A stretch of 64,000 nt of DNA, taken from NCBI GenBank assembly GCA_002327925.1, contig DCVA01000003.1:5809-69808 (forward strand), read 5' to 3'. The DNA comes from Anaerolineales bacterium UBA2200 (lineage in GTDB: Bacteria; Chloroflexota; Anaerolineae; UBA2200). Positions 1-21,902 of this stretch are shown here, piece by piece. Position 1 is the first letter of the stretch. Every line of letters begins with the position of its first letter. The notes under the pieces are model-generated. The model saw only the letters and a list, made by a program, of their open reading frames with translations, was not told the origin of the DNA and searched no databases. The position numbers and the translations under genes were made by a program.

Positions 1-512
1 GTGCCAGGTCCGAGGCGGGTCCCAAGCGCCGATTGCTCGAGGACACGGTCAGCTTCCTGGAATGGGTGCTTTCCGCCTATCCCAACTTGAGCCTGGGCAT
101 CGAGAACTCGTGCCCTCAGGCCGGTGTGCACAAGATTGGAGAGGAGAACTCTGACCTGACGCGAGTGCTCGAACAGCTGGTGCATCCCAGACTGGGCATC
201 TGCTGGGACATCGGGCACCAGGTCAAGGCAGGACGACTGGAGCTGCCACCCATGGGGTGGTTGGGTCAGGTCAGGCACGTTCACATCCACGACCTGGACA
301 CGACCGGCCAGGATCACGTGCCGTTTCTCTTTGGCCGCGTCGATCCAGAGTACTGGCTGCCGCCACTGGCGCGGGCACGGTTCGGCGGCATTGTCACGGT
401 AGAGCTGAACGGCCAGCGCTGCTCGTTTCTCTGGCCGGACAGAATCGTTCCGGCCCTGATAGCCAGCGTCGAGCTGGTCGCACACGCGCTCAAGGGAGAC
501 GATCGGACGTAG
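1..512 (+). CDS. sugar phosphate isomerase/epimerase (xylose-isomerase-like TIM barrel), C-terminal part; 5' end lies outside the window
   Basis: The ORF frame is open to the window start. The translation (…HIHDLDTTGQDHVPF…GIVTVELNG) resembles AP-endonuclease 2/xylose isomerase-like TIM barrel proteins. Confidence 0.55.
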   Translation, partial: ARSEAGPKRRLLEDTVSFLEWVLSAYPNLSLGIENSCPQAGVHKIGEENSDLTRVLEQLVHPRLGICWDIGHQVKAGRLELPPMGWLGQVRHVHIHDLDTTGQDHVPFLFGRVDPEYWLPPLARARFGGIVTVELNGQRCSFLWPDRIVPALIASVELVAHALKGDDRT

Positions 513-542: not shown

Positions 543-1490
543 GTGATGACCAATGGCGTGATCGTGGAACAGAACCCGGGAGTTCACAGAAGCAGCTGGT
601 GGCGCAGGTGGGGCGAGGAGACAGTCGTTGCTTACCTCTTCCTTGCCCCGAGCATGATCATCCTCCTGGCCTTTGCCTTCTTTCCAGTGGTCTTCTCCAT
701 CGCGGCCAGCTTCACGCGCTGGAATCTGCCTTACCGTCCTGTCTGGACCGGCCTGACCAACTACCTGTACCTGTTCACAAACGAGGTCGGATGGCCCGCA
801 TTTCGGCAGGCCATCACCAATACCGTCTATTTCACCCTCGGCTCCGTTCCTCTGAACATGGCCATTTCGCTTCTCCTAGCACTCCTGCTAAACCAGAAGC
901 TGAAGGGCGTGGGGCTGTTCCGCACAGCCTATTTCCTGCCGACGATCACCTCCACGGTGGCCATGTCGGTGGTCTGGATGTGGCTCTACCATCCCTCAAA
1001 CTATGGGCTGTTCAACTCCGTTCTGCTAAAGATAGGGCTGCCGACCGAGCGTTGGCTTCGCGACCCCCTGCTGGCCATGCCCTCGCTCATTCTGATGGGC
1101 ATCTGGCACGGCATGGGCTACAACATCATCATCTTTCTGGCGGGCCTGCAGAACGTACCCGTTCAGCTCTATGAGGCGGCACGAATCGACGGCGCCGGCA
1201 CATGGGCCCAGTTCCGCAAGATCACCTGGCCGCTGATCAGCCCCACAACCTTTTATGTTCTGGTCATCGGGGTGATCAACGCAATGCAGGCCTTTGCCCA
1301 GATGCACGTCATGACCCAGGGGGGACCGCTGGGCAGAACGACCACCATCGTGTACATGCTGTACCACGAGGCCTTTGAGAGCTTTGCCATGGGCCGGGCG
1401 TCGGCCCTGGCGTGTTTCCTCTTCGTGATCCTGCTGGTACTGACACTGATCCAGTTCCGCCTTGCCGGATCGCAGGTGCACTATGAATAA
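543..1490 (+). CDS. carbohydrate ABC transporter permease (MalF/UgpA-type)
   Basis: 315 aa with six predicted TM segments. Typical sugar-permease N-terminus (ILLAFAFFPVVFSIAASFTRWNL) and an EAA-like loop (YEAARIDGAGTW). Confidence 0.85.
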   Translation: MMTNGVIVEQNPGVHRSSWWRRWGEETVVAYLFLAPSMIILLAFAFFPVVFSIAASFTRWNLPYRPVWTGLTNYLYLFTNEVGWPAFRQAITNTVYFTLGSVPLNMAISLLLALLLNQKLKGVGLFRTAYFLPTITSTVAMSVVWMWLYHPSNYGLFNSVLLKIGLPTERWLRDPLLAMPSLILMGIWHGMGYNIIIFLAGLQNVPVQLYEAARIDGAGTWAQFRKITWPLISPTTFYVLVIGVINAMQAFAQMHVMTQGGPLGRTTTIVYMLYHEAFESFAMGRASALACFLFVILLVLTLIQFRLAGSQVHYE

Positions 1491-2412
1491 TCACCCGCCC
1501 GGACGGACCCCCGCGGGGGAGGGCGATGCCAAAATGACCACGAAGCCGACCACCGGATCCGTGCCCTTGTGGCAGTCGCAGCGCGTACGCAAGGGCTTGG
1601 TCGCCGTGCTGTGGTACGCCTTGCTTTCTGTGACCGCCCTGGCAGTGATGCTGCCGTTCATCTGGATGATTTCCACTTCCCTGAAAGGTCCCAAGGAGGT
1701 CTTTACCTACCCGCCCAGCTGGATCCCAAGCGCATGGCGCTGGCAGAACTATATCGATGCCTGGGAGGGAGCGAAATTCGGACGCTACTTTCTAAACAGT
1801 GTCTTTGTGGCTCTGGCGGTAACACTGGGACAGGTAATCACCTGCTCGATGGCGGCCTATGCCTTTGCCCGCATGAACTTTAGGGGCAAGAACCTCGTAT
1901 TTGCCCTCTACCTCAGCACGACCATGATTTCGACCCAGGTTACCCTGGTACCCTCCTATCTGGTGATGAAGTGGCTTGGATGGATGGACAGCTACAAGGC
2001 ACTGATCGTGCCTTTCCTCACTAGCCCCTTCGCCATCTTTATGATGCGGCAGGCCTTTATGACCATGCCGCGAGAACTGGAGGAAGCGGCGCGGCTTGAC
2101 GGGTGCGGGCGGGTCCGCTTTCTGGTCCAGATCCTGCTGCCGCTCAGCAAGCCGGTCATCGCCTCCCAGGCGCTATTCGCCTTCATGGGCAACTGGAACA
2201 GTTACCTGTGGCCCCTGATCATCACCACCAGGCAGGATCTGCGCACTTTGCAGATCGGGCTGCGCTATTTCGTCAGCCAGGAAGGAGGCACACAGTGGGG
2301 TCTCTTCATGGCGGCCGCTGTGCTCGTTTCGCTGCCGGTGATTGTTATCTACTTTGTGGTGCAAAAGTCATTCGTGGAAGGCATCGCCACAACCGGTCTC
2401 AAGGGAACCTAG
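1483..2412 (+). CDS. carbohydrate ABC transporter permease (MalG/UgpE-type)
   Basis: Multi-TM protein with the EAA loop (LEEAARLDGCGRVRF). Its ATG overlaps the stop of the upstream permease (ATGAATAA), suggesting translational coupling. An alternative start is at 1534. Confidence 0.85.
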   Translation: MNNHPPGRTPAGEGDAKMTTKPTTGSVPLWQSQRVRKGLVAVLWYALLSVTALAVMLPFIWMISTSLKGPKEVFTYPPSWIPSAWRWQNYIDAWEGAKFGRYFLNSVFVALAVTLGQVITCSMAAYAFARMNFRGKNLVFALYLSTTMISTQVTLVPSYLVMKWLGWMDSYKALIVPFLTSPFAIFMMRQAFMTMPRELEEAARLDGCGRVRFLVQILLPLSKPVIASQALFAFMGNWNSYLWPLIITTRQDLRTLQIGLRYFVSQEGGTQWGLFMAAAVLVSLPVIVIYFVVQKSFVEGIATTGLKGT

Positions 2413-2519: not shown

Positions 2520-3938
2520 ATGCGAGTGAGTAGGACACACGGATTCCGCCAGACCTCTGGCGCGGTGATCGTGGTCTGGGTTGTCGTGGCACTGCTTGCG
2601 GCGGCCTGCGGCGGGCCGGCGGAGCCCACGCCAACCACCGCCCCACCTGCACAGGTCCAGCCAACCGTCGCAGCTTCCACCCAGGCCCAGCCCACGCAGG
2701 CGCCGACTGGGGTGCCTGCGGCGACCAGTGCTCCCGCCGTCAAGCCGGACCATGTAACGCTGGACTTCTGGTACTCGCTGGGCGGGAACAGCGGCCAGGT
2801 GGTGGAGGAGCTCGTCAAGCTGTTCAACGAGAGCCAATCCTACATCACCGTCGTGCCCACCTACCAGGGCGGTTATGCAGAGATCATGGCCAAGACCTGG
2901 AATGCCATCTTTGCCGAGCAAACGCTGCCACAGGTAGCACAGCTCGGAGGCGCCCCTCTGGTCGGCGCTACTGGAGCGTGCGTGCCCATCACCGACTTTA
3001 CCGATGGGCCCAACGGTATCGACCGCAGCAAGATCTATGATGCCTTCTGGGACTATAACAAGGCGGAGGGAACCATCTGGTGCATGCCCTTCAACAACAG
3101 CATGCCCGTGTTGTATTACAACAAGGACCTCTTTGCCAAGGCGGGGCTGCCAACCGAGCAGGGGCCAGAGACCTGGGACGACGTCATCTCCTACGGCCAG
3201 GAATTGACCAGAGGCGACCAGTGGGGTTTCAACACGCACGACGACACGCACTGGTATCTGAGCACCATGATCCTGGAGAACGGGGGGCAGATCATCAACC
3301 AGGAGGAGACAGAGTGTCTGTACAACAGCCCCGAAGCCGTGGAGATGCTGCAGCTCTGGGGCGACATGGTGAACGACTACGAGATCATGCCTCCGGCGCA
3401 GCACAAGGAAGCGGGAACGGACTTTCTGGCGGGCGTTCTCGGCATGTTCTTCCGCTCCAGTTCCACTCTGCCCAGCCTGGTGCGTGACGCACCGTTTGAG
3501 CTGGGTGTGGGGATGGTACCCGCTGTAGAGGGCAAGGACCGCGTCGCCCCCATCGGCGGCGGAAGCCTGGTGATCTTTAAGAACAGCAACCCTTACATCC
3601 TGGAGGCAGCCTGGGAGTTCGTCAAATTCATGACCAGTGAGGCCAGCTCCCTCTACCTGTCAACGCACACGGGCTACCTGCCCCTCTACAAGAGTTCGTT
3701 GGAGTGGCCCGAAATGCAGGCCTACCTGGAGCAGAACCCCCTCGTCCGCGCACCTCTGGAGCAGCTCCAGTACGCTTACGCCATTCCGGTCTTTCCGTCG
3801 CTGGGAACAAGCGACAGCGCACTGCGTCAGGCGGTCGAGGCCGTGGAACTGGGCGCCAGCGATCCGCAGGCCGCCCTCGACCAGGCCAAGAAGATAGTGG
3901 ACCAGGACCTGATTACTCAGGCCCAGAACAAGCAGTAG
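2520..3938 (+). CDS. ABC transporter substrate-binding protein (extracellular solute-binding family 1), lipoprotein
   Basis: Signal peptide with lipobox (LLAAACGG) followed by a Pro/Thr/Ala linker. 472 aa with sugar-SBP-like composition. Lies downstream of the two permeases. Confidence 0.85.
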   Translation: MRVSRTHGFRQTSGAVIVVWVVVALLAAACGGPAEPTPTTAPPAQVQPTVAASTQAQPTQAPTGVPAATSAPAVKPDHVTLDFWYSLGGNSGQVVEELVKLFNESQSYITVVPTYQGGYAEIMAKTWNAIFAEQTLPQVAQLGGAPLVGATGACVPITDFTDGPNGIDRSKIYDAFWDYNKAEGTIWCMPFNNSMPVLYYNKDLFAKAGLPTEQGPETWDDVISYGQELTRGDQWGFNTHDDTHWYLSTMILENGGQIINQEETECLYNSPEAVEMLQLWGDMVNDYEIMPPAQHKEAGTDFLAGVLGMFFRSSSTLPSLVRDAPFELGVGMVPAVEGKDRVAPIGGGSLVIFKNSNPYILEAAWEFVKFMTSEASSLYLSTHTGYLPLYKSSLEWPEMQAYLEQNPLVRAPLEQLQYAYAIPVFPSLGTSDSALRQAVEAVELGASDPQAALDQAKKIVDQDLITQAQNKQ

Positions 3939-3965: not shown

Positions 3966-5858
3966 ATGAAAGGGAGATTGCTCGTACTCTCGCTGGTTAT
4001 CGTTCTATCGCTCATCGTGTCGTGTGCCCAACCCACGCCGACACCCACGCCGACGCCCGTGCCCACGGCGACGCCTCGGCCGACGAACACCCCCGTGCCG
4101 ACTCCCACGCCGCTGCGCATCGAAAAGCCCACCGGCAACATCCTGTTCACCATTACCGGCGATATCACCCAGCCCAACGTGGACAATTCGGTGCAGGTCG
4201 ACGAGGCCGGCCTCGCCCCTTACGTCAAGGAATACACGATCGACGACCCCTGGGCGGGAAAGGGCATGAAGTACAACGGCGTGCTGCTCTCGAAGCTCTG
4301 GGAGCTTGCCGGCGCCGGGACAACGGCCAACGGTGTGACCCTGACTGCAACCGACGGAATGCGCCTGCGCATACCCAAGGAAGACCTGATGCAGTGGCCG
4401 ATCATTATTGTCACCCAGTTGGCCGGCAAGGCGCTGGTGGCGGAGCAGGGTGGCCCGGCGAAGCTGGCCTTCCCGGCGGAGGCGGCAGGAACCTATACCC
4501 AGGACGTCTGGATGTGGTATGTCAAGACAATCGAGATCGGAGTGCTTCCCACGGCCCTTGCCGCTCCAGTTGGGAATCCGCTGTTCACCGTGACCGGGAC
4601 GCTTGACCTGCCCAATGTGGAAAAGACCTGCGTGATTGATAAGGCCAACATCGCCTCCTACATCAAGGAATACACCCTCGACGACCCGTGGGCAGGCAAG
4701 GGTATGAAGTACGGAGGCGTACTCCTTTCCGAGATCTGGAAGCTGTGCGGCGGCACGGAGCAGTCCACCGACGCGATCCTCACAGCCAAAGACGGCTTTA
4801 CTGTGTACGTCGCCAAGGCGGATCTCGACAAGTGGCCCATTCTGGTTGCCCTGCAACTGGGAGGGCGGGACCTGGTAGACGAGCAGGGTGGCCCTGCCAA
4901 GCTGGCCTTCCCGGCAGAGGCAGGAGGAACGTACACAGACGCTCAGTGGATGTGGTACATCCAGACCATTCAGCTCGGCAAGCGCCCCAAGCCTTTGGCC
5001 GCTCCCAAGGGGGATGTTCTGCTAACGGTCAACGGAATGGTGGACCTGGCCAATGTGGACGGGACCTGCCAGCTAGACGCAGCCAACATCAAGAAGTACC
5101 TGAAGGAATTCACCCTGGATGACCCCTGGGCAGGCAAAGGCCAGCAGTACAGTGGCATCCTGCTCTCCGAAATCTGGAAGCGCTGCGGTGCCAACTATCA
5201 GGCCACGACCGCGATCCTTGTGGCAGAGGACGGGTACCAGGTCAACATCAGCAAGGACGACCTGCAGAAATGGCCGATCCTGATCGCCACACAACTGGCA
5301 GGCAAGGACCTGGTGAAAGAGCAGGGGGGGCCGGCCAAGCTGGTATTCCCTGCCGAGGCGGGCGAGAAGTATGACCAGGACCAGTGGATGTGGTACGTCA
5401 AGACGGTCACCTTCGCCAAGCCATCGAAGGCCCTGGCAGCTCCCACAGGCACGCCGCTGTTCACGGTCAAGGGCAAGGTAATGCAGCCCAATTCGGGGAA
5501 AGATTGCGTCGTGGATGCCGCAAACATCTCCAAGTACATCAAGGAGTACACCATCGACGACCCGTGGGCCGGCGACGGTCAGAAGTACAACGGAATCCTG
5601 CTCTCAGACCTGTGGAAGCGTTGTGGCGCGGCAGAGGCGGCCACAGCGGCCATTCTCACTGCCAGCGATGGCATGAAGGTCACCGTAGCCAAGGAAGACC
5701 TCCTCAAATGGCCGATCGTCATCGTGACACAGCTCGAGGGAAAGGATCTCTCAGACAAGCAGGGCGGCCCGGCCAAGCTGGCCTTCCCTGCCGAGGCGGC
5801 CGAGAAGTATCCCAAAGAAAACTGGATGTGGTACATCAAGACCATCCAGTTCGAGTAG
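3966..5858 (+). CDS. lipoprotein with four tandem ~146-aa domains of unknown function (possibly sulfite-oxidase/Mo-co-domain-like fold)
   Basis: Lipoprotein signal (SLIVSC) then a PTPTPTP linker, then four repeats. Each repeat carries TVxG…C…DDPWAGKG…LLS…WK.CG…DG…KWPI…QL.GK.L…EQGGPAKLAFPAEA…WMWY.KTI. Last gene of the ABC transporter operon. Confidence 0.8.
   Translation: MKGRLLVLSLVIVLSLIVSCAQPTPTPTPTPVPTATPRPTNTPVPTPTPLRIEKPTGNILFTITGDITQPNVDNSVQVDEAGLAPYVKEYTIDDPWAGKGMKYNGVLLSKLWELAGAGTTANGVTLTATDGMRLRIPKEDLMQWPIIIVTQLAGKALVAEQGGPAKLAFPAEAAGTYTQDVWMWYVKTIEIGVLPTALAAPVGNPLFTVTGTLDLPNVEKTCVIDKANIASYIKEYTLDDPWAGKGMKYGGVLLSEIWKLCGGTEQSTDAILTAKDGFTVYVAKADLDKWPILVALQLGGRDLVDEQGGPAKLAFPAEAGGTYTDAQWMWYIQTIQLGKRPKPLAAPKGDVLLTVNGMVDLANVDGTCQLDAANIKKYLKEFTLDDPWAGKGQQYSGILLSEIWKRCGANYQATTAILVAEDGYQVNISKDDLQKWPILIATQLAGKDLVKEQGGPAKLVFPAEAGEKYDQDQWMWYVKTVTFAKPSKALAAPTGTPLFTVKGKVMQPNSGKDCVVDAANISKYIKEYTIDDPWAGDGQKYNGILLSDLWKRCGAAEAATAAILTASDGMKVTVAKEDLLKWPIVIVTQLEGKDLSDKQGGPAKLAFPAEAAEKYPKENWMWYIKTIQFE
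4134..5855 (+). repeat. four tandem ~438-bp coding repeats inside the lipoprotein gene (units start near 4134, 4571, 5010 and 5447)
   Basis: Protein-level periodicity of ~146 aa with conserved motif blocks. The DNA units have diverged but are colinear. Confidence 0.75.
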
Positions 5859-5903: not shown

Positions 5904-5945
5904 AGAGTCCGGGGGCGATCGATCGCCCCCGGACTCTGTTCTTTC
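5904..5945 (+). terminator. 34-bp perfect palindrome (AGAGTCCGGGGGCGATC|GATCGCCCCCGGACTCT) followed by a T-rich tract; candidate intrinsic terminator of the ABC operon
   Basis: Seen in sequence, 46 nt after the lipoprotein stop. The GC-rich stem is followed by GTTCTTTCCC. Confidence 0.5.
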
Positions 5946-5972
5946 CCTCGCCACGACAGAGGCCGGCGACGG

Positions 5973-6000
5973 TTGACAAGCGATTCCGCAATGCTATAAT
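5973..6000 (+). promoter_or_regulatory. consensus sigma70 promoter TTGACA-N16-TATAAT upstream of alaX-L
   Basis: Both hexamers are perfect, which is unusual in ~65% GC DNA. The RBS AGGAAAGA precedes ATG 6047. Confidence 0.5.
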
Positions 6001-6046: not shown

Positions 6047-7240
6047 ATGACCAAACGTCTCTACTACCAGGATTCTTACTGCCGCGAGTTCGATGCTTCC
6101 GTGGTCCGTTCGGTCGAGGGCAGCGCCGGAACCACAGGACTGATCCTCGATTGCACGAGCTTTTACCCAACCTCGGGCGGGCAGCCCCACGACCTCGGCA
6201 CGCTGGGCGGCGCGGTGGTCCTCGATGTGACCGAGCACGATGGCGAGGTGGTCCACTGGGTGGCGCGAGCTCCCGCGGCCCAGGCCGTGCACGGACAGAT
6301 CGACTGGCAGCGCCGCTTCGATTACATGCAGCAGCATACGGGCCAGCATATCCTCTCGCAGGCATTCCTCGAGCTGCTGAACGCCCGGACCGTCTCCTTT
6401 CACCTGGGCCAGGAGGCATGCACGATCGACCTCGACCGGGTGATCCTCGATCCGGCCGCCCTCGAGCGAGTGGAGGACCGGGCGAACCAGATCATCTTCG
6501 AGGATCGTGCCGTCACGGCAAGGATCGTGGATCCCGAGGATGTGCCTACATTGGGGCTACGAAAGGCGCCAACCGTCAGCAGCAACATCCGCATCATTGA
6601 GGTAGAGGGATTTGACCGCTCGCCCTGCGGCGGAACGCACTGCGCGCGGAGCGGCGAGGTGGGAACCATCGCCCTGCGCAAAGTGGAACGCCGCGGGGAG
6701 GAAACTCGCGTCGAATTCGTTTGCGGCTGGCGTGCCCTGCACGACCATCGCTGGAAGACCAGCACCATCAACGAGCTGGGGTTGGGCTTTAGTGTGAAGG
6801 ACCGCGAAGTCGGCGCCGCGGTACAGCGCCTGATCACGGATGCGACGGAGAATCGTCGTGACCTGCAGCAACTTCGCTCTGAGATGCTGCCTGCCGAGGC
6901 GCAGCGGCTTCTGGCCTCAGCCAGACCCTGGCGCGAGATGAGAGTGGTCGTGCAGTCCTTCGCGGAGCGCGAGGTACAGGAGCTGCGAAGACTGGCCACC
7001 CTTCTTACATCGGCTTCCGGCGTCATTGCCCTCCTTGGCACGAACGGACAGCAGGGCAGGCTGGTGTTTGTTCGCAGCAGGGATGTCGCCGCGGATATGG
7101 CGGCCCTGCTGAGCAAAACGTGCCAGAGTCTGGGGGGCAAAGGGGGCGGCCAGTCCGATCAGGCTCAGGGCGGCGGCTTTCCGGGAGAGAGAGTGGCCGA
7201 AGCCCTGGAGCTGGCCTACCGCACTCTGACCGAGCAATGA
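6047..7240 (+). CDS. alaX: alanyl-tRNA editing protein AlaX-L (AlaRS editing-domain homolog)
   Basis: Carries the editing-domain zinc motifs HTGQH and CGGTHC, with 397 aa typical of AlaX-L. Confidence 0.85.
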   Translation: MTKRLYYQDSYCREFDASVVRSVEGSAGTTGLILDCTSFYPTSGGQPHDLGTLGGAVVLDVTEHDGEVVHWVARAPAAQAVHGQIDWQRRFDYMQQHTGQHILSQAFLELLNARTVSFHLGQEACTIDLDRVILDPAALERVEDRANQIIFEDRAVTARIVDPEDVPTLGLRKAPTVSSNIRIIEVEGFDRSPCGGTHCARSGEVGTIALRKVERRGEETRVEFVCGWRALHDHRWKTSTINELGLGFSVKDREVGAAVQRLITDATENRRDLQQLRSEMLPAEAQRLLASARPWREMRVVVQSFAEREVQELRRLATLLTSASGVIALLGTNGQQGRLVFVRSRDVAADMAALLSKTCQSLGGKGGGQSDQAQGGGFPGERVAEALELAYRTLTEQ

Positions 7241-8174: not shown

Positions 8175-10757
8175 ATGCCCTCCCAGGAGAACGCTTTTGC
8201 CCATGCCCTTCGGGGCATCCGCGCCATCGGAGTGCGAAACACGCTCCAGTCCGCCTTCTACCCGCTCAGACGCACCTTCCATCAGGGCAGTTTCTCAAAA
8301 GGTGGATCCTCGCCCTCGCTGCTGCAGGGTCTGGCGGCAGTGCTTCGCGGAGGGGCAGACCGGCCGCCGGCGCAGAGACCCAATCTCGCCGACTGCGACA
8401 CTCCGGGGGACGTAGTCTCGGCTGAGCGAGACGGGCAGGTCGTTACTATCCGCTGTGAGCGCGCCTCGCTGCAGATCACCGTCCTGGCGGCCGACACCCT
8501 GCGGGTGCGTTACGGCGTCTCCGGCACCTTCGCGACGGGCCCCTCCTACTCTGTGTGCAAAACGGACGACCAATGGGTTCCGGTCCCCTACTCCGTTGAC
8601 AATCTGGCGGAGGCTGTGGAGATACGTACGGACCTCCTGCTCTGTCGGGTGAGCCGTTCCCCGTGCCGCGTTTCGTTTCTGGATGATCGGGGAACCCCCG
8701 TTCATACTGACGCCCGGGGCATGGCCTGGTCTCGCGACCGGATAGCGCTCTCGACCGCCCTCGTGCCAGGGGCGCAGATCCTCGGGCTGGGAGAGAAGGC
8801 CTGCGGCCAGGACCGTCGCGGCCGGACGTTTACCCTGTGGAACACGGACCCTCAGAACTATCAACCTGGGGCGGATCCCCTCTATCTGAGCATCCCCATG
8901 TTCATCGCGCTTGTCGACGGCCGCGCCCACTCGGTGTTTTATGACAACTCCTACCGGGCCTCTCTCGACGTCGGGGCAACGCAGAACGACGAGTTGCTGT
9001 ACGCGGCAGACGGCGGGGAACTGTGCTACTACTACTTCCACGGCCCTGCCCTGCCCCAGGTCCTGGAACGCTACACAGAGCTGACCGGCCGCCCTGCCCT
9101 GCCTCCTCTCTGGTCGCTGGGCTTCCAGCAGAGCCGCTGGAGCTACTTTCCCGCCGACCGGGTGCGTGAGGTGGCCCGGCTCCTGCGCGAGCACCGCATT
9201 CCGTGCGATGCGTTGTACCTGGACATCCACTACATGGACGGCTACCGGGTCTTCACCTGGGATCGGCATCGCTTCCCGGACCCGACCGGTCTGCTGGCGG
9301 ATCTTCATCGGCAGGGCTTCCGGGTTGTGCTCGCGGTCGACCCTCATGTCAAGTCCGATCGCTCCTATCGCATCTGCGCCGATGGGCTGATGAAGCGAGT
9401 CTTCTGCACTTACCCGGATGGCAGGCCTGCAGGCGGGCCAGTTTGGCCAGGTGAGGCCTTCTTCCCCGACTTTACTGCTGAGCGGGTGCGCTGGTGGTGG
9501 GGCGACCTTTTCTCGGACCTGCTGGATGATGGCGTGGACGGTTTCTGGAACGACATGAACGAGCCAACGATCATCGGACCATCGGGCGATACCCTGGCCG
9601 ACTGCGTTCGCCATGACTGGGAGGGTCAGGGCGCCGATCATCGACAGGCGCACAACGTCTACGGTCAGCTTACCGCCAGAGCGACGGCAGAAGGGCTGCG
9701 GCGCCTCAGGCCGAACTCGCGTACCTTCGTACTGACCCGGTCAGGATGGGCCGGAGTGCAGCGCGATGCCTTCTCCTGGACCGGCGACAACAAGAGTACC
9801 TGGGAGCATCTGCGCCTGAGCCTGCCCATGGTACTGGGCAAAGGGCTGTCAGGTCTGGCGTTCACGGGAGCCGACGTCGGCGGGTTCGACGGCGACGCTG
9901 AAGGGGAACTGCTGGTGCGCTGGACCCAGATGGGTGCCTTCCTGCCCCTATTCCGCAACCATGCTTCCATCTGGAGCCGCGATCAGGAGCCCTGGGCTTT
10001 TGGCGAGAGCTACCTCGGCCCCATACGCGATGCCATCGAGCTGCGCTACCGGCTTTTGCCTTATCTCTACACGGCCGCCTGGCAATGCTCGCAGACAGGC
10101 GCGCCTCCTGCCAGACCGCTGGCCTGGGCCTTCCCCTCCGATCCACACGCCTGTCAGTTGGATAGTCAATTCCTGTGCGGCGACTCTCTGCTGGTGGCTC
10201 CGGTGGTAGAGCGAGGAGCAACTTGCCGGCAGGTCTACCTGCCGCGCGAGACCTGGTTCGACTACTGGACCGGTCAGCGACATCCGGGGCCCATCACACT
10301 GCACGCCGAGTCGCCCCTGGAACGGATTCCCCTCTGGGTAAGGGGGGGTACCGTTTTGCCAACCTGGCCGCTCCTGCAGCACACAGGCGAGGCAGAGCCG
10401 GATCGCCTGTTCCTGGATGTGTATTCGGGCAACGGCAAGAGCGTCCTCTACGAAGATGACGGGCTGAGCCAGGCCTACACCAGGGGTGACCTGAGGGTGA
10501 CCGAGTTCAGGCAGCGTCTGACCGACGCAGACCTCGAAATCACCGCCTCCCGCCACGGTGGGTACTGCCCTTCCTACGGCCTCTGCGAATGGCGCGTGTT
10601 CGGCCTGAGCCAGCCCTCGCAGGTCGAGGTAGACGAAAGGCCGCTCACGAATTGGCGATGGTTCCCCGATCAGCCGGGCGGCGTGCTGAGCTTTGAAACC
10701 GGGCCTCTGGTGCAGAGGGTGGTTATTCGCTTCGCGTCTGCGCCAGCAGCGCCATAG
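8175..10757 (+). CDS. glycoside hydrolase family 31 alpha-glucosidase
   Basis: GH31 nucleophile region [12 protein letters not shown] and an N-terminal beta-sandwich (…TLRVRYG). 860 aa. The exact start is uncertain because the N-terminal 60 aa are low-complexity. Confidence 0.9.
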
Positions 10758-12768
10758 CCCGGTCAACAATGGCCTTGACGCTAAAGCCAAGCTGCTCATA
10801 GAGCACCTGCTGCGGTGCAGAGGCCCCAAAGCGTTCTAGACTGATCACGGCTCCGCTGCGGCCGACCCAGCGATGCCAGCCCAGACCCGCTCCCGCCTCA
10901 ATGGCCAGGCGCACCGGGACTGAGGCCGGGAGTGTGGCCTCCTGGTATTCGGACGATTGGGCCGCGAACAGCTCCCAGCTGGGCATGCTGACCACCCGCG
11001 CCTGGACGCCGTTCTGCTTCAGCGCTTCCCGTGCCTGCAGGGCAAGGCTCACCTCTGAGCCGCTGGCCATCAGGACGATCGAGGAGCTACTCTCCCGGAC
11101 TGCCGGCCCGCGGGAAGGGCTCCCATCCGCGAGCACGTACGCGCCCCGGACCACACCGCCGACCCCCGCAAGAAGCGTCCGATCCAGCACGGGCAGCTTC
11201 TGCCGGCTCAGCACGAGGGCCACGGGCCCCTCGCGGTGCCGCAGCGCCCAGCGCCAGGCCTCCACGGTTTCACCGGCATCCGCCGGGCGAATGACGGTGA
11301 GCTGCGGGATCGCGCGCAGCGCAGCCAGGTGCTCGACCGGCTGGTGGGTGGGGCCATCCTCACCCAGACCGATGCTGTCGTGCGTGAACACGTAGACCAC
11401 GGGCAACTGCATCAGCGCGGCAAGGCGAATCGCCGGGCGCATATAGTCGGAGAACACCAGAAAGGTGCCGCCGTAGACCCTCAGCCCCCCATGCAGGGCC
11501 ATACCATTCAGGATGGCGCCCATGGCGTGCTCACGCACGCCAAAGTGCAAATTGCGACCGCCCGGTGTCTCAGCGCCAAAAGCGGAATAGCCGCGCAGGT
11601 AGGTGTTGTTCGAAGGGGAGAGGTCGGCCGATCCTCCGACCAGCTCCGGCAGAAGGGGGGCAATGGCGTTCAGCACCTTGCCCGATGCCTCGCGGGTGGA
11701 GGCGGTGGCTGCCGGATCCGGAAACGTCGGCAGGCTGCTTTCCCAGCCATCCGGGAGCTGGCCGCTTTGGCAGCGATACCATTCCCTTCCCAGCTCGGGA
11801 TAGGCCTCCCTGTATGCGTTCAGTGTGTCTATCCAGGCGGACTGGGCCCTCGCACCGGATTCCAGGGCCACTCGAAAGCGCTCCAGCACGGCAGGAGGGA
11901 TGTGGAAGTGCTCCCCGGCAGTCCATCCCAGAGCCTCCTTGGTGCGCCGGACCTCCTCCGCGCCCAGAGGCGCACCGTGTGCCTCAGAACTATCCTGCTT
12001 GCCCGGGCTGCCGTAGGCGATGTGCGTTCGCGCGATAATGAGCGATGGGCGCTCTGTCTGAGAGGTGGCCATGTCGAGAGCCGCGGCCACCCCGGCGAGG
12101 TCGTTCCCCTCTACACGCTGGACGAGCCAGCCGTAAGCCTCAAAGCGAGCCCCAACGTCTTCCGAAAAGGCCAGGCTCGTCGGGCCTTCAATGGTGATGC
12201 GGTTGTCGTCGTACAGGTAGATCAGCTTGCCGAGTTTCATGTGCCCGGCCAGCGAGGCTGCCTCCGAGCTGACGCCTTCCATCAGGTCTCCGTCGCTCAC
12301 CAGGCCAAAAGTGTGGTGATTCACCAGCTCCAGGCGGGGCCGGTTGAATCGTGCGGCCAGCATTCGCTCGGCAATGGCCATCCCCACACCCGAGGCAAAG
12401 CCCTGGCCCAGCGGACCAGTGGTCACCTCCACTCCCGGAACCAGTCCGTGCTCAGGGTGACCTGGCGTGCGGCTGTTCCACTGACGAAAGCGTTTCAGCT
12501 CTTCCAGGGGCAGGTCGTATCCGGTAAGGTGCAGCAGCGAGTAGAGCAACGCGCTGCCGTGCCCCGCTGAGAGCACGAAGCGGTCGCGGTCCGGCCACGA
12601 TGGATCGGCAGGGTTATGCTTCAGGAAGCGGGTCCAGAGTACAAAGGCCATTGCCGCGGCACCCATGGGCATACCGGGGTGGCCCGACTGGGCCTGCTCG
12701 ACCATATCCATGGCCAGCGTGCGGATTGTGTTGATGCACAGCTCGTCCGATGTGGCCTGTTTCAACAT
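10723..12768 (-). CDS. tkt: transketolase (full-length)
   Basis: 681 aa. N-terminus [18 protein letters not shown]… and a TPP-binding region. A GGAGG RBS precedes the ATG. The 3' end overlaps the GH31 3' end by 35 nt (convergent). Confidence 0.9.
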
Positions 12769-13583: not shown

Positions 13584-14917
13584 AGCACCCGCAGGTAGCG
13601 GCCGATTTCCCAGGAACTGACCTGGATACGGTACTCATCCCACTCCTGCCGTTTGGCCTCGAGATAACGTCTGAAGGTGTGCTCTCCAAACGCTGCGGCG
13701 ATCACCTCGTCGCGCTCCAGCTCCTGCAGCGCTTCCTCCAGCGTGCCGGGGAGGGATACGATATCGCGTGAGCGCAGCATCAGCGAATCGAACTCGTAGA
13801 CGTTCTCCTCAACCGGTGCCGGGGGCATCAGGTCGCGGCGAATGCCGTCCAACCCGGCCGCAAGCATGGCGGCGAAAGCCAAATACGGATTGGCGCTCGG
13901 ATCCGGGCAGCGCAGCTCGCAGCGAGTCGAAGTCTCGCCATTCCCCGGGAGGCTCGCGGGGATGCGGATCAGGGCCGAGCGGTTGATCTGTCCCCAGCAG
14001 ATGTACACAGGAGCCTCATAGCCAGGCACCAGTCTCTTGTACGAGTTGACCGTCGGAGCAACCACCGCCGCCAGCGCGCGAGCGTGCATCATCTGCCCGG
14101 CGATAAAGTTGTACGCCAGACGCGAGAGATGGTAGGGATCATTCCTGTCATCAAAGACATTATGACCGTCCTTCGCCGCCAGGCTCTGGTGAACATGCAT
14201 GCCTGAGCCTGCGGCATGGAGCATGGGTTTGGGCATGAACGTGGCATAGAGTCCATCGTTCTGGGCCACCGCCTTGATGGTATATCGCAAGGTCACCACG
14301 GCATCGGCGCTGGTCAGAGCATCGGCATAGCGAAAGTCCACCTCCTGCTGACCCGGGCCGCACTCGTGATGAGCGGCCTCAACCGCGATGCCCATAGACT
14401 GGAGAGCCAGGGCGATTCGGTTGCGAACCTGGGAGGCCAGGTCGCGCGGCGAAAAGTCGAAATAGCCCGCATGATCCTGGGGCACGGGGGTGAGCTCGGC
14501 CTCTCCGTTGCCTTTGAACAGGTAAAACTCCACTTCGGGTCCCGTGTTGAAGCCAAACCCCATCGCGGCGGCGTCGGCCAGACTGTCCTTGAGGATACGC
14601 CGCGGGTCGCCCACAAAGGGCCGTCCCTGAGGGTCAAAGGCATCGCAGATCAGGCGAGCTGTGCGCTCCGGCGGCATCGTCCAGGGCAGAACCGCGTACG
14701 TGCCCGGATCCGGTCGAAGAACCATATCGCTTTCGGCGATTCGCGCAAACCCCTCGATCGAGGACCCGTCAAAGTTCATGCCATGTTCCAGAGCCGATGC
14801 CAGACCGGCCACTGGAATGGTAACATTCTTCACCGTGCCAAAGATGTCGGTGAACTGGAGGCTGATAAAGCTGACCCCGTCCTCACCGGCTCGAGCAAGA
14901 ACTGCCTCTGCTTTCAT
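13580..14917 (-). CDS. glnA: glutamine synthetase (type I-like, 445 aa)
   Basis: GS beta-grasp and catalytic-domain motifs (…FDGSSIEGF…, …HVHQSL…). A GGAGG RBS precedes ATG 14917. Confidence 0.85.
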   Translation of the reverse strand: MKAEAVLARAGEDGVSFISLQFTDIFGTVKNVTIPVAGLASALEHGMNFDGSSIEGFARIAESDMVLRPDPGTYAVLPWTMPPERTARLICDAFDPQGRPFVGDPRRILKDSLADAAAMGFGFNTGPEVEFYLFKGNGEAELTPVPQDHAGYFDFSPRDLASQVRNRIALALQSMGIAVEAAHHECGPGQQEVDFRYADALTSADAVVTLRYTIKAVAQNDGLYATFMPKPMLHAAGSGMHVHQSLAAKDGHNVFDDRNDPYHLSRLAYNFIAGQMMHARALAAVVAPTVNSYKRLVPGYEAPVYICWGQINRSALIRIPASLPGNGETSTRCELRCPDPSANPYLAFAAMLAAGLDGIRRDLMPPAPVEENVYEFDSLMLRSRDIVSLPGTLEEALQELERDEVIAAAFGEHTFRRYLEAKRQEWDEYRIQVSSWEIGRYLRVL

Positions 14918-15020
14918 GGTGCTTCCTCCATTCAGGCTTTGGAACACGCACACAAAGCGACGGCGACCTCTAGCGGAGATCGCCGTCGTTCTCCGAACTG
15001 ATGGCGTGCCTGGCAGCCCC

Positions 15021-16385
15021 TCAGGGCTGGCCCGGACGCTTCCTCAGGGCAAACCAGCCGATCCAGCCCAGCAGGCCCGCGGCTACCAGCACCTGCCGCG
15101 CCGCCTGTAGCAGCGACCAGTAGGGAAACGATTCGTTGACCCTGGTCATCCTGATCTGGTACCAGGCACTCGGTTCTGTGAGCACTCGTGGCTGCTCCAG
15201 CACAGCAGGCGTCCAGTCAAAGGCCATGTCCAGAGAGACGGACTGCTCTCCCACAAAGCGCGGCTGAACAGTCCACGACCAGAGCAGCGACGCTTCCGGT
15301 CCGGTAAGTACCTGCTCAAGAGTCGACGCCGCCTCGACCTCGAAGGTCGCCGCGCTGAGCTGTGTCTTCACGCCGAGCACATAGACGTCAAACGAGCTGG
15401 CGTCTACAACCGTCGCCCGGGGACGGAAGACCAGCTTTACCGGATAGGTGTTACCCACTTCCATCTGGTTCCACCAGTGAACTTCGACCACCCGTGGCGA
15501 ACCAGCCAGGATGACTGTCGGCGTGGCAAAAGGCGTGGAGGAGGGAGCGGCCTCGGTGGGCGACACAGTCTCAGGAGGCGGCGTGGGCAGCGCCGGCTCG
15601 TATCGAATGGTCAGTCTGGGCCTGCTCTCAGGGTCCCCGTTCTCGCTGGAGAAGAAGATGTGGTGAGACGGGACGGCAGATTCAAAGCTCTTGATCAGCA
15701 TTCCGAAATTACCCTGCGGCTCGCGCAGCCAGTACTGCACCAGGGCTGTCACGTCGAACTCGATCCACTGGGGATCGGACTTGGTGCTCACATTCTGAAA
15801 CGGGCCGGATTCTCGGTCCGAAAGCCCGTTGGCCCCCGCCTTTTCCCATGGCCTGCTCCAGCTCACCGTGCACGGATCCCAGAGGCCTCGTGGAAGGTAC
15901 AGACCCAGCTCCACACCCTTGTTGCCCTGCACGGCGTAGAGCTCCAGTGTCGCCTGAACGACCACGGCACTGGAATCGAGGCCGGCAATGGGCCCCGGCA
16001 ATCGAGTGAGGTCGAAGCGGATCAGGGTGGCGGCTTTGTCAGTGGTGACCACATAGAGCTCGCCCGAATCGCAGTAATTCTCGTCCGGGCGATAGAACTG
16101 GAGGTAGGTATCGCTGCATCCGGAGTATCCATCTCGGCCCTGCTGCAGGACGGTCGTCTTCTGCCTGTCGGTAGCAGGGGGACTCTGCGTGGGAGTGGCC
16201 GGCGGAGCGGAAGGAGACACGGTTGTCGGCCCGGGAGCGGGACCCCCCAGGGGTAGACCCGCCACGTCGTCGGGAAGAGCGAAGACCTCCACCAGCTCCC
16301 GCGGCATCCGGAGCTGGAGGGCTACCGTGAGGGCCATCGCCAGTGCCAGGGCCACCAGACTCAGACGTAAGAGCAAGCGTGCCAT
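15021..16385 (-). CDS. secreted/membrane-anchored protein with DNRLRE-like domain
   Basis: N-terminal signal/TM, then a Pro/Thr-rich linker, then a DNRLRE-type motif (DTYL…YVVTTDKAATLIRFDL) and a C-terminal TM helix. Confidence 0.55.
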   Translation of the reverse strand: MARLLLRLSLVALALAMALTVALQLRMPRELVEVFALPDDVAGLPLGGPAPGPTTVSPSAPPATPTQSPPATDRQKTTVLQQGRDGYSGCSDTYLQFYRPDENYCDSGELYVVTTDKAATLIRFDLTRLPGPIAGLDSSAVVVQATLELYAVQGNKGVELGLYLPRGLWDPCTVSWSRPWEKAGANGLSDRESGPFQNVSTKSDPQWIEFDVTALVQYWLREPQGNFGMLIKSFESAVPSHHIFFSSENGDPESRPRLTIRYEPALPTPPPETVSPTEAAPSSTPFATPTVILAGSPRVVEVHWWNQMEVGNTYPVKLVFRPRATVVDASSFDVYVLGVKTQLSAATFEVEAASTLEQVLTGPEASLLWSWTVQPRFVGEQSVSLDMAFDWTPAVLEQPRVLTEPSAWYQIRMTRVNESFPYWSLLQAARQVLVAAGLLGWIGWFALRKRPGQP

Positions 16386-19325: not shown

Positions 19326-21902
19326 TCAGGCCCCCCACACAATCAGGCGAGGCTCGAAGGGATTGGGTAGATCCTCGTTGCGGGGCAGGACCCTCAGCGT
19401 GTACCCCCGCACGCCGCTGTGCTGGTTGCGCGACTTGCCCTCAAAGAGGGACACGCCCCTTCTCTGACGGACAAAGACCATCTGGGTGGCCCGGCCTTCA
19501 GTAATCTCGTGATCCGAGTCCAGCACGCCCTCATAGAGCTCGACTGACACGTCGTCCGGCGTAAGCTGACCCAGCTCCACGCTGGCGCGTACCACCAGCT
19601 CTGAGCCAACCGGCAGTTCCACTCCTCCGTCGTCTCCCAACGGGGCTGCCCGGCTGTCCGACTCGACGCCGACAATCTTCACCCCGGACCAGTGCTGGTA
19701 CAGACGGGCCTTCCATTCGGCGAGGGATCTCGCGCGGGCAAAGTTCTTGGCCGTGAGTCGGGAATGGCGCCACTCAGCCGGCTGATACAGACGCTCCGTA
19801 TATTCGATCGCCATACGACCTGTGCTATAGGCTGGCACCAGGCATCGGATCGAGTCTTTCATCCGCTGAATCCAGCCGCGTGGCAGCTCATCAGGCCCGC
19901 GATTGTAGAAGAGGGGAACGACCTCCTTCTCCAGCAGGTCGTAGATCGCGTTGGATTCGACTTGATCCTGATAGTTCAGATCCTCATAGACCTCGCCGCG
20001 GCCGATGGCCCAGCCGAGCTCCGGCCTGTAAGCTTCCGCCCACCAGCCATCCAGCACGCTCATATTGAGCCCACCGTTGACAGCTGCTTTCATGCCGCTG
20101 GTGCCGCTGGCCTCCTGCAGCAATCGGGGAGTGTTGAGCCACAGGTCCACGCCCTGCAGGAGATATCTTGCCACGTTCACATCATAGTCCTCGATGAAGA
20201 CGACGTTGCGCAAGCCCTTGTTGCGCAGCAGGTGAACCAGCTGTCGGATCAGTTCCTTGGCCGGGTTGTCCTGCGGGTGGGCCTTGCCGGCGAAGATAAG
20301 TTGCACCGGGCGCTCGACGTTGTTGAGGATGCCGGCCAGGCGCTCTGCGTCGCGCAAGAGCAGTGTGGCCCGCTTGTAGACGGCAAAGCGGCGCGCAAAG
20401 CCGATGGTCAAGGCCTGTGGGTCGAGGAGCTCGCCCGACCGCTCCACCTCGGCAGGCGGCGAGCCGCGCTGCTCCATCTGGTGGCGCAGCCTCCTGCGGG
20501 CAAAAGCCACCAGGCGCGTTCGTCGTCTCTCGTGAACACGCCACAACTCTTCATCGGGGATCTCGTCCACCGCTTCCCACGCGCTGCTGTCCGCCGGATT
20601 CTGACTCCAGCGCGGGCCCAGATAGCGGTCAAAGAGCGCGGCCATATCCTGCGAGATCCACGAGCGCGTGTGCACCCCATTGTTGATCGCTATGATCGGC
20701 ACTTCCCAGGTCGGCACGTCCGGCCAGATGTTCTGCCACAGCTCCCGCGACACGTCGGCGTGGATCTGACTCACCGCATTGGTCTGAGCCAGGCGCAGCG
20801 CCAGCACCGCCATGTTCACCGGCTCATCGGGGTTGTAGCGATTCAGGCGACCCATGGCCAGGAAATCGTCCCTTGAGATATGCAGGAGATCGTAGTACTG
20901 CCCCAGGTAGCGGTCGATCAAGTAAGGGCCGAAAAGGTCGATGCCGGCGGGGACGGAAGTATGGGTGGTGAATATGGTGCTGGTGGCGACGACCTCGCGT
21001 GCCTCGGCCAGGCTCAGCCCCTTGGTTTGCACAAGCTGGCGGATTCGCTCGATCGCCAGAAACCCGGAGTGACCCTCGTTCATGTGACATACACTGGGTT
21101 CGATGCCCAGGGCCTGAAGGGCCTTCAGCCCGCCGATTCCCAGCAGAACCTCCTGCCGGATGCGCATCTCGGCGTCACCGCCGTAGAGCTGGTGGGTAAT
21201 ATGTCGATCCTCAGCCTGATTCTGGGCAATGTTCGTGTCCAGCAGGTAGAGCGGCACCCGGCCGACCTGCACGCGCCAGATCTGCGCAACAACGCGACGG
21301 CCTGGATAGTCGACCTCGATGGTGACCGGGACCCCATCGTGCCTCTCGAGGCGCACAGGCAAGGAGTGAAAATCGTTCTCGATGAACTGTTCGCCCTGCC
21401 AGCCATCGGCGTTGAGGTACTGCCGGAAGTATCCTTGCTGATACAGCAGTCCCACGGCTGCCAGCGGCAGTCCCAGGTCGCTGGCCGACTTGAGATAGTC
21501 GCCGGCGAGCAGGCCCATTCCACCCGAGTAGATGGGCAGGCACTCAGTCAGCCCGTACTCAAGGCAGAAATAGCCGATGATTTTCTGGGCCACGTCAGCA
21601 TGATTCTTGTTATGCCAGGTCGTGGTGGAGGTCATGTAGCGTTGAAAGTCGGCGCTAACCCGTTCGAGCTGGGCCAGGAAACCATCCTCCCGCGCCGCGC
21701 TCTCCAGCCGGTCCTGCTCGATCAGCCCGAGCATCTGAACGGGATTGTGACCGGAGGCTTCCCAGGCATCCCGATCCAGCCGCCGAAAGAGCTCGATGGC
21801 CTCGGGATTCCAGGTCCACCAGAGGTTGTACGCCAGCTCCCTCAGCGCGCCGAGCGCCGGGGGCAGTGTGGGAGTGATATTGACAACGAACATCGGTCGC
21901 AT
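19326..21902 (-). CDS. glgP: alpha-glucan phosphorylase (GT35, DUF3417-containing maltodextrin/glycogen phosphorylase)
   Basis: 858 aa. N-terminus LAYNLWWTWNPEA is typical of alpha-glucan family phosphorylases. The PLP-site region is conserved. Confidence 0.9.
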   Translation of the reverse strand: MRPMFVVNITPTLPPALGALRELAYNLWWTWNPEAIELFRRLDRDAWEASGHNPVQMLGLIEQDRLESAAREDGFLAQLERVSADFQRYMTSTTTWHNKNHADVAQKIIGYFCLEYGLTECLPIYSGGMGLLAGDYLKSASDLGLPLAAVGLLYQQGYFRQYLNADGWQGEQFIENDFHSLPVRLERHDGVPVTIEVDYPGRRVVAQIWRVQVGRVPLYLLDTNIAQNQAEDRHITHQLYGGDAEMRIRQEVLLGIGGLKALQALGIEPSVCHMNEGHSGFLAIERIRQLVQTKGLSLAEAREVVATSTIFTTHTSVPAGIDLFGPYLIDRYLGQYYDLLHISRDDFLAMGRLNRYNPDEPVNMAVLALRLAQTNAVSQIHADVSRELWQNIWPDVPTWEVPIIAINNGVHTRSWISQDMAALFDRYLGPRWSQNPADSSAWEAVDEIPDEELWRVHERRRTRLVAFARRRLRHQMEQRGSPPAEVERSGELLDPQALTIGFARRFAVYKRATLLLRDAERLAGILNNVERPVQLIFAGKAHPQDNPAKELIRQLVHLLRNKGLRNVVFIEDYDVNVARYLLQGVDLWLNTPRLLQEASGTSGMKAAVNGGLNMSVLDGWWAEAYRPELGWAIGRGEVYEDLNYQDQVESNAIYDLLEKEVVPLFYNRGPDELPRGWIQRMKDSIRCLVPAYSTGRMAIEYTERLYQPAEWRHSRLTAKNFARARSLAEWKARLYQHWSGVKIVGVESDSRAAPLGDDGGVELPVGSELVVRASVELGQLTPDDVSVELYEGVLDSDHEITEGRATQMVFVRQRRGVSLFEGKSRNQHSGVRGYTLRVLPRNEDLPNPFEPRLIVWGA

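Follow-up and report, generated by a model that had tools for sequence, protein, structure and literature searches.

PruR-type proteins, described in 2024, are single-domain pterin sensors of Proteobacteria that are coupled to cyclic di-GMP enzymes or kinases. The periplasmic PruR proteins (A. tumefaciens Atu3496; structures in the PDB: 7kos, 7kou, 7rkb, 7kom, 7kp2) have a truncated sulfite oxidase (SUOX) fold in which the hairpin is shortened and a Pro-Trp motif (W70) takes the place of the molybdenum-ligating Cys (Mo-Cys); the pterin ring is sandwiched by Tyr104 and Trp160 and hydrogen-bonded by Asn102 (PMC11194511). Recognized PruR groups include variants with Asp in place of Asn102 (groups C and D) and with Phe in place of Tyr104 (PMC13259868, a 2026 review). 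PruR binds free pterins (H4-monapterin, neopterin), and neither of the two PruR papers makes mention of tandem, ATP-binding cassette (ABC) transporter-linked or Chloroflexi homologs. Here we analyzed a gene for a 630-aa lipoprotein in a 64-kb stretch of DNA, hereafter the window, from Anaerolineales bacterium UBA2200 (contig DCVA01000003.1). The product represents a multi-domain, lipid-anchored branch of the PruR-type pterin-binding fold that is linked to transport and catabolism, and we estimate a chance of about one in two that it serves, without a cofactor and through several binding sites, to capture a small molecule that is pterin-like and contains ribose.

Like PruR, the modelled domains are secreted, truncated SUOX folds of ~146-150 aa (TM-score 0.85, root-mean-square deviation (rmsd) ~2.2 Å) in which the catalytic and dimerisation domains are absent, and Pro-Trp replaces the Mo-Cys; a putative C-terminal stacking Trp and a counterpart of the Asn/Asp-x-aromatic triplet would lie at the cleft. 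In contrast to the one soluble domain of the proteobacterial PruR, the window protein, which comes from Chloroflexota (Anaerolineae), has four domains in tandem, held by a Pro/Thr tether with a lipid anchor. Its repeats are 18-22% identical to PruR in structural alignment and differ from it by Met at the Tyr104 position in two of the four repeats and by a Lys where the SUOX 'GGPxRL' motif has Arg, a site at which PruR has lost the basic residue. By definition, PruR is paired in an operon of two genes with a diguanylate cyclase/phosphodiesterase of the DcpA type (WX7E periplasmic domain) or with a sensor kinase. Instead of this pairing, the window gene is terminal in an ABC importer operon inside an ADP-ribosylglycohydrolase-family (ARH) catabolic cluster. 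With its four-domain architecture and the absence of a DcpA/kinase partner, the 630-aa protein therefore falls outside the PruR system definition on two counts.

Fold and repeat architecture of the lipoprotein

The profile of Pfam family PF00174 (Oxidored_molyb) matched the 630-aa protein in four stretches (E=2.7e-29), each of which spans only profile positions ~50-149 of 169. In a sequence search of the PDB, the best solved relatives were 7rkb and 7kos/7kou, 149-aa 'pterin binding proteins', followed by 7kom and 7kp2; E values for 7rkb/7kos were ~1e-11 with the whole protein and 3e-16 with a profile of 40 repeats, and the best alignment, to 7rkb, covers aa 488-623 (repeat 4). From the alignment of the 40 repeats, AlphaFold2 (AF2) produced a model of repeat 2 with a predicted local distance difference test score (pLDDT) of 95.9 and a predicted TM-score (pTM) of 0.90. 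When this model was compared with the PDB by Foldseek, five PruR entries ranked first (TM 0.85 and rmsd 2.1-2.3 Å for 7rkb, 7kos and 7kou). The Moco enzymes ranked below PruR with TMq values of 0.61-0.74; they comprised SoxC, SorA, YedY and chicken sulfite oxidase (0.64-0.74) together with SorT, plant sulfite oxidase and nitrate reductase. Matches 2xts, 2blf, 1xdq and 1sox had a probability of 1.00, and E values for the SUOX enzymes were 4e-5 to 1e-3. The Pfam and Foldseek results place the repeats in the fold with which SUOX enzymes bind molybdenum cofactor (Moco), and the repeats have the ~150-aa truncation and the secretion seen in PruR. According to the model, each repeat is a truncated, Mo-Cys-less SUOX-fold module of the PruR type, and the sequence comparison indicates that the 630-aa protein is homologous to PruR and likely works like it. 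No solute-binding protein (SBP) family matched the 630-aa protein, the fold of which is SUOX-type rather than that of periplasmic binding proteins (PBP).

The open reading frame (ORF) starts with ATG, 8 bases past the ribosome-binding stretch GGAGAAGGA. The N-terminus of the product, MKGRLLVLSLVIVLSLIVSC, is a signal peptide closing in the lipobox I-V-S-C, with Cys20 as the lipobox Cys. By motif inspection, the basic residues ahead of the hydrophobic core vary among the orthologs (KGR, KR, RR, RTR), so the protein has no conserved twin-arginine motif and differs in its export from extracytoplasmic SUOX enzymes, which use twin-arginine translocation (Tat).

The tether leads into four ungapped repeats with a period of exactly 146 aa, no indels and a pairwise identity of 51-64%. 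Landmarks recur as DDPWAG at aa 93, 239, 385 and 531, (E/K)QGGPAKL at 160, 306, 452 and 598, and WMWY at 182, 328, 474 and 620. A full-length model gave four well-folded domains behind a disordered N-terminus (aa 1-45) with a pTM of 0.58, a value that supports no confident fixed arrangement of the domains and describes them rather as beads on a string. Repeats 2-4 have Cys residues at repeat positions 27 and 66, whereas repeat 1 lacks both in all ten orthologs; the pair probably forms a disulfide.

Tandem Repeats Finder did not detect a 438-bp repeat in the DNA of the gene, the sole DNA-level tandem repeat being a 12-bp unit at 4031-4058 within the tether, and repeat n of the window protein is most similar to repeat n in each of nine aligned full-length homologs. 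Taken together, these observations indicate that the quadruplication is old. A recent duplication or an assembly artefact was rejected, since no 438-bp DNA repeat was seen. The gene is under purifying selection, with dN/dS values of 0.14-0.19 against four orthologs.

Predicted ligand cleft and loss of the molybdenum site

HMMER alignment placed P69-W70 of PruR (TTPW) on the DDPW that is present in all four window repeats, and DDPW aligned in the same way to the PW of 7rkb, 7kos, 7kom and 7kp2. The Asn102 position of PruR corresponds to the invariant Asp of D-G-x in all four repeats and the Tyr104 position to Met, Phe, Tyr and Met in repeats 1-4, respectively. Trp160 appears equivalent to W135, the second Trp of WMWY, as judged from HMMER alignment to two Vibrio PruRs together with the C-terminal spacing. 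W47 and W135 go together in the 40 orthologous repeats: 33 keep the two and seven have replaced the two (repeat 3 in four orthologs, repeat 4 in three); in no case was one replaced alone. In the wider family (228 domains), Cys never occurs at position 47, which is W, F or Y; position 81 is D/N, position 83 is mostly Y, M or F, and W135 is found in 178. The paired loss of W47 and W135 and the wider conservation argue that the cleft is the functional site. On these alignments, the repeats would retain a PruR-type aromatic pterin cleft that is conserved and co-varying.

In the window protein, none of the four repeats departs from the canonical motifs. Concerted changes were seen in repeat 3 of orthologs P0003, P0006, P0007 and P0010 and in repeat 4 of P0005, P0007 and P0010 (loci L004 and L006), where PW becomes PK/PS, WMW becomes WVS/WVK, and GGPAKL becomes GGPVRL/GAPARL; in repeat 3 only, KWP becomes (G/N/S)LP. 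These replacements point to a ligand site that may have been remodelled or lost, with sub-functionalisation among the four domains.

The repeats share with the SUOX Moco enzymes (SorA/SorT, SoxC, YedY/MsrP and assimilatory nitrate reductase) the core fold, the GGP-x-(K/R)-L-x-FP motif and the D-G-(Y) strand, and the Pfam and NCBIfam matches are to Moco families (PF00174; SoxC, 45.8 bits). This raises the idea of a genuine Mo- or W-pterin oxidoreductase outside the cell, similar to MsrP/YedY or a sulfite dehydrogenase, with which the basic Lys117 retained at the Arg position of GGPxRL would be compatible. However, a Mo-ligating Cys on a long beta-hairpin is not found; the hairpin is shortened, Trp occupies the Mo-Cys position in all four repeats, and Cys is seen there in no member of the family. 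The 146-aa core corresponds to ~100 of the 169 profile positions, neither the protein nor the locus contains a PF03404 dimerisation domain, heme or an MsrQ partner, export is of the lipoprotein/Sec type, and the SoxC score is far under its 420-bit cut-off. The oxidoreductase explanation is thus refuted for practical purposes, and we infer that the 630-aa protein is no redox enzyme.

The sequence-only reading had described a 630-aa lipoprotein of four ~146-aa repeats, a resemblance to the SUOX/YedY fold seen by eye, and a lipoprotein instead of a Tat signal, all of which were borne out, including by the structure prediction that it had proposed for one repeat unit. It had argued from the signal that the protein cannot carry Moco; that conclusion stands, with the Trp at the Mo-Cys position and the truncated domain as the more direct evidence. 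Of its 'cofactor-less binding scaffold', the absence of a cofactor holds, and the remainder is better stated as a small-ligand (pterin-type) binding domain with PruR as the closest family.

The importer operon, its relatives and the catabolic cluster

The gene is preceded by the 3' end of an AP_endonuc_2 gene, two permease genes and an SBP gene. A 27-bp gap that contains the ribosome-binding site, with no terminator, separates the SBP gene from the 630-aa gene, and the strong terminator (hairpin at 5904-5937) and new promoter on its 3' side (Table 1) mark it as the last cistron of the operon. It is thus predicted to be co-transcribed with the genes of a CUT1 ABC importer. The transporter genes are of CUT1 type, with UgpA, UgpE and UgpB as the best NCBIfam matches, all far under the equivalog cut-offs (136 bits against 335 for permease 1; 175 against 297 for permease 2). 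Because every score lies below its cut-off, 'sugar transporter' is a family label and not a substrate. The two permeases are 78% and 85% identical, respectively, to permeases 1 and 2 of the related locus L006, and permease 2 probably starts downstream of its listed TTG. The AP_endonuc_2 product is 54% identical by tblastn to that of L006 and is an upstream member of the same conserved cluster. The SBP has UgpB (6x84) as its best PDB match (E=3.7e-37); its tether after the lipobox is unusually long (~55 aa) and rich in Pro, Thr, Ala and Gln, paralleling the tether of the 630-aa protein. The four-domain protein as the SBP itself was rejected for the window, where the UgpB-like SBP adjoins it. 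CUT1 systems commonly share one ATPase encoded elsewhere, and the ABC ATPase signature LSGGQ was found nowhere within the 64-kb window.

The promoter at 5973-6000 matches the consensus at 12 of 12 positions, with an extended -10 TG, and is unusually canonical for a Chloroflexota genome of 62% G+C; the AlaX-like gene that it precedes is of the tRNA_SAD/DHHA1 type. The surrounding region is rich in alpha-glucan genes, namely a GH31 alpha-glucosidase-type gene (8175-10757), a DUF3417/phosphorylase gene (19326-21902, reverse strand) and a GH77 4-alpha-glucanotransferase gene (24709-26238), and this richness looks unrelated to the operon, which stops at the terminator.

Table 1. Features of the window and gene orders at the loci of related genes
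Feature	Position or locus	Strand	Basis or gene order
630-aa lipoprotein with four predicted PruR-type SUOX-fold domains	3966..5858, stop codon included	+	ORF, Pfam, AF2, Foldseek, dN/dS
Signal peptide with lipobox, aa 1-20, Cys20	3966..4025	+	Sequence; Cys20 invariant across 10 orthologs
Pro/Thr-rich tether, aa 21-49	4026..4112	+	Sequence, full-length model
Repeat 1, aa 50-195	4113..4550	+	PW motif, D-G-M, WMWY; without the Cys27/Cys66 pair
Repeat 2, aa 196-341	4551..4988	+	PW, D-G-F, WMWY, Cys pair; unit modelled by AF2
Repeat 3, aa 342-487	4989..5426	+	PW, D-G-Y, WMWY, Cys pair
Repeat 4, aa 488-630	5427..5855	+	PW, D-G-M, WMWY, Cys pair
3' part of gene for AP_endonuc_2, a xylose-isomerase-like TIM barrel; truncated at the window edge	3..512	+	Frame-3 translation; stop ends at 512
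ABC permease 1 (CUT1, UgpA/MalF-like), true start codon uncertain	543..1490	+	PF00528, E=1.6e-18
ABC permease 2 (CUT1, UgpE/MalG-like)	1462..2412	+	PF00528, E=1.3e-22
Solute-binding lipoprotein (SBP_bac_1/8, UgpB-like), lipobox LLAAAC	2520..3938	+	PF13416, E=1.5e-33
Intrinsic-terminator-like hairpin with T-rich tail	5904..5947	+	15-bp stem, 11 G-C pairs, 4-nt loop
Perfect sigma-70 consensus TTGACA, 16 nt, TG-TATAAT	5973..6000	+	Precedes unrelated AlaX-like gene, 6047-7240
Four-domain genes	L001, L002, L004, L006, L008, L017		(FGGY kinase - SorC regulator -) ADP_ribosyl_GH - AP_endonuc_2 - permease - permease - SBP - four-domain gene
Two-domain gene	L102		Directly 3' of orthologous SBP
One-domain gene, 40% identity	L009		PfkB - ADH - DeoC-type aldolase - FGGY - SorC - one-domain gene - EcfA - EcfA' - EcfT - unknown - ADP_ribosyl_GH - AP_endonuc_2 - permease - permease
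Two-domain gene, ~30% identity	L103		SorC - ECF S-component (RibU-like) - EcfAA' - EcfT - PfkB - ADP_ribosyl_GH - aldolase - ADH - FGGY - MFS - two-domain gene - PF01663 phosphodiesterase
Two-domain gene	L104		EcfT - two-domain gene - secreted PF01663 - PfkB - ADP_ribosyl_GH
ADH, alcohol dehydrogenase; ECF, energy-coupling factor; MFS, major facilitator superfamily.

To place the protein among its relatives, a profile built from 40 orthologous repeats was searched against 1.84 billion cluster representatives. It matched 1,154 of them at E<=1e-3, 258 at <=1e-10 and nine at <=1e-30; the repeat family is rare. Most matches are single-domain proteins of 165-210 aa and few have two or four domains, with lipobox-like signals in 98 of 159 family proteins. 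About ten full-length four-domain orthologs were recovered (67-78% identity), all of them metagenomic, and four-domain sequences altogether numbered only about a dozen. When GTDB species representatives were scanned with the repeat profile, no relative came up, and the four-domain family is thus absent from that collection. A metagenome scan gave five loci, three with four-domain genes, one of them new, and two with distant single-domain relatives. The EF-G encoded in the window is 67-73% identical to that of Anaerolineae MAGs, which places the window in this class. One match, P0090 (4,985 aa, Thr/Ala/Ser-rich), was discarded: the profile gave E=1.9e-18 over '26 stretches', and no domain matched on re-scan, so it is probably a low-complexity false positive.

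At the six four-domain loci (Table 1) the synteny is shared up to the four-domain gene, and the genes on its 3' side differ. One- and two-domain relatives (30-51% identity) adjoin ABC, ECF or MFS transporters. The transporter type therefore varies, whereas the ARH gene is constant. Beside the ARH gene, the cluster contains a regulator of the SorC type and a set of genes that varies between loci: FGGY and/or PfkB kinases, a class-I aldolase, a Zn-dependent ADH and AP_endonuc_2. For these enzymes NCBIfam gave sub-threshold matches only, to ribokinase/ribose-1-P kinase, xylulokinase, DhnA-type aldolase and DraG. The subfamily carrying the DPW...QWMW signature is linked to this ARH-centred catabolic cluster, and the linkage is conserved.

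The operon order proposed by the sequence-only reading was seen, with AP_endonuc_2 added upstream, and its suggestions that the ATPase is shared or encoded elsewhere and that the gene is not independent of the transporter agree with the missing LSGGQ and the missing terminator. Its 'sugar ABC transporter' survives as a CUT1/UgpABE-like family assignment. The co-occurrence with ABC transporters that it had proposed examining was found at the six four-domain loci; across all relatives, the constant partner is the ARH cluster. Its suggestion of glycan binding found nothing in its favor. In a broader form of that suggestion, the SUOX domains would have no small-ligand function and would act as a structural scaffold that binds polysaccharide or organizes the envelope near the transporter, in keeping with the 'sugar' type of the operon, the alpha-glucan genes of the wider window (GH31, GH77, phosphorylase) and the tethered tandem domains typical of carbohydrate-binding surface proteins. 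We consider this improbable: no carbohydrate-binding family or fold was matched by Pfam or Foldseek, the residues of the PruR pterin cleft are conserved and co-vary, and relatives adjoin ECF/MFS transporters and a nucleotide-pyrophosphatase-type enzyme, not glycoside hydrolases.

A different role is suggested by the PruR proteins, which are the sole characterized members of the family and act as regulators (PMC11194511). Accordingly, the four domains could sense extracellular pterin, and possibly its redox state, and modulate a membrane partner without feeding substrate to it; this partner would be a sensor kinase or cyclase encoded at another locus, or the ABC transporter itself. In L012, L013, L014 and L021, distant single-domain relatives (24-34% identity) do have a histidine kinase gene immediately 3', as in PruR-type signalling. 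In contrast, no signalling gene (kinase, GGDEF/EAL or DcpA-like) adjoins any four-, two- or one-domain locus of the DPW...QWMW type, a terminator lies directly 3' of the window gene, and four tandem sites on a long tether fit capture better than a 1:1 sensor complex. A regulatory role is therefore unlikely, though conceivable. The window protein belongs to a sub-lineage, DPW ... GGP(A/V)KL ... QWMW, that is tied to uptake and catabolism rather than to signalling.

Several relatives bear features of their own. L009 has the orthologous CUT1 permease pair (13738-15547, 65% identity) and no SBP gene within 16.5 kb, as well as a full ECF energising module together with the one-domain SUOX-fold lipoprotein (8591-11901); the missing SBP raises the possibility that the SUOX-fold protein is able to serve as a receptor itself. 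A PF01663 phosphodiesterase/nucleotide-pyrophosphatase gene encoding an N-terminal signal-like segment lies directly 3' of the two-domain gene in L103 (10951-12189) and L104 (1969-3252), two unrelated contigs with GC contents of 0.60 and 0.45, and the two genes look like a conserved pair with extracytoplasmic products. Further SUOX-fold lipoproteins with four domains in ~600 aa (P0049, P0084, P0097, P0100, P0165) have acidic Pro/Thr/Ala/Glu-rich tethers and the motifs ADGY, P(I/L)RLV, HPKKG and C-x-DC, without the Pro-Trp motif. Tandem SUOX-fold arrays on lipoproteins thus seem to have arisen more than once.

Proposed function and biological meaning

In the proposed capture mechanism, the lipid anchor and the flexible Pro/Thr tether would hold the four predicted binding domains outside the cell, where they may bind a scarce small molecule that contains ribose, by its heteroaromatic, pterin-like part. 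Four tethered sites would enrich the ligand locally for the neighbouring SBP, itself tethered, and for the permease; among relatives, capture would serve an ECF or MFS importer instead, and in some of them a secreted phosphodiesterase may trim the compound before import. In the cytoplasm, the ARH-like enzyme would free the sugar, to be consumed by the linked kinases and aldolase.

Partial parallels exist for both halves of this scheme. In GlnPQ-type ABC importers, which contain multiple substrate-binding domains, several tethered extracytoplasmic binding modules per importer raise the capture rate. The window locus could be regarded as analogous in having several tethered binding modules beside one importer; it differs in its SUOX instead of PBP fold, in the separation of the protein from the permease, and in the presence of a conventional SBP. 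For the catabolic half, the Rus loci of Bacteroidetes scavenge ribose from ribosylated compounds by means of an importer, kinases of the ribokinase type and a varying set of enzymes that release ribose, ADP-ribosylglycohydrolases among them (bioRxiv 10.1101/574913). Unlike the window locus, Rus is SusC/D-based, located at the outer membrane and without a SUOX-fold binding protein, so that the analogy extends to the catabolic cluster only. The yegTUV operon of E. coli consists of a transporter, an ADP-ribosylglycohydrolase and a PfkB kinase (PMC10819704).

Several points weigh against the capture module. A conventional SBP is already present in the operon, which leaves no obvious need for a second binding protein, and the gene neighbourhood supports a functional link but not a hand-over mechanism. 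The independent genomic contexts are few, comprising five arrangements that are all metagenomic. In the cleft, the Tyr104 equivalent is Met in repeats 1 and 4, and the proposed correspondence of W135 to W160 of PruR comes from HMMER alignments and spacing, not from residue-level structural superposition. The putative ligand assignment derives from sequence and model; literature on the ARH cluster offers the Bacteroides Rus analogy and yegTUV, a triad of the same enzyme families that is likewise uncharacterized (PMC10819704), and names no substrate.

A wider and more speculative reading, which we consider rather unlikely, is that cofactor-free binders derived from the SUOX fold form an unrecognized class of extracytoplasmic substrate receptors working with ABC, ECF and MFS importers. 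Their task would be to scavenge a cofactor of pterin type, with ribose or a phosphodiester in it, that other cells nearby release; it would be dismantled by the secreted phosphodiesterase and the cytoplasmic ARH-like enzyme; candidate ligands would be pterin glycosides, molybdopterin dinucleotides and methanopterin-like compounds. If true, ECF transporters would gain an external binding protein, a component absent by their definition.

The Mo-Cys-less PruR-type SUOX fold is now seen in Chloroflexota as one-, two- and four-domain lipoproteins that are tied to uptake and catabolism genes and not to signalling genes. If the domains of the capture module bind a pterin-like nutrient, they would represent a new type of accessory receptor for importers and a scavenging route for pterin and cofactor compounds in anaerobic communities, and they would provide a substrate handle for the widespread, uncharacterized cluster of ARH, PfkB/FGGY kinases and aldolase.

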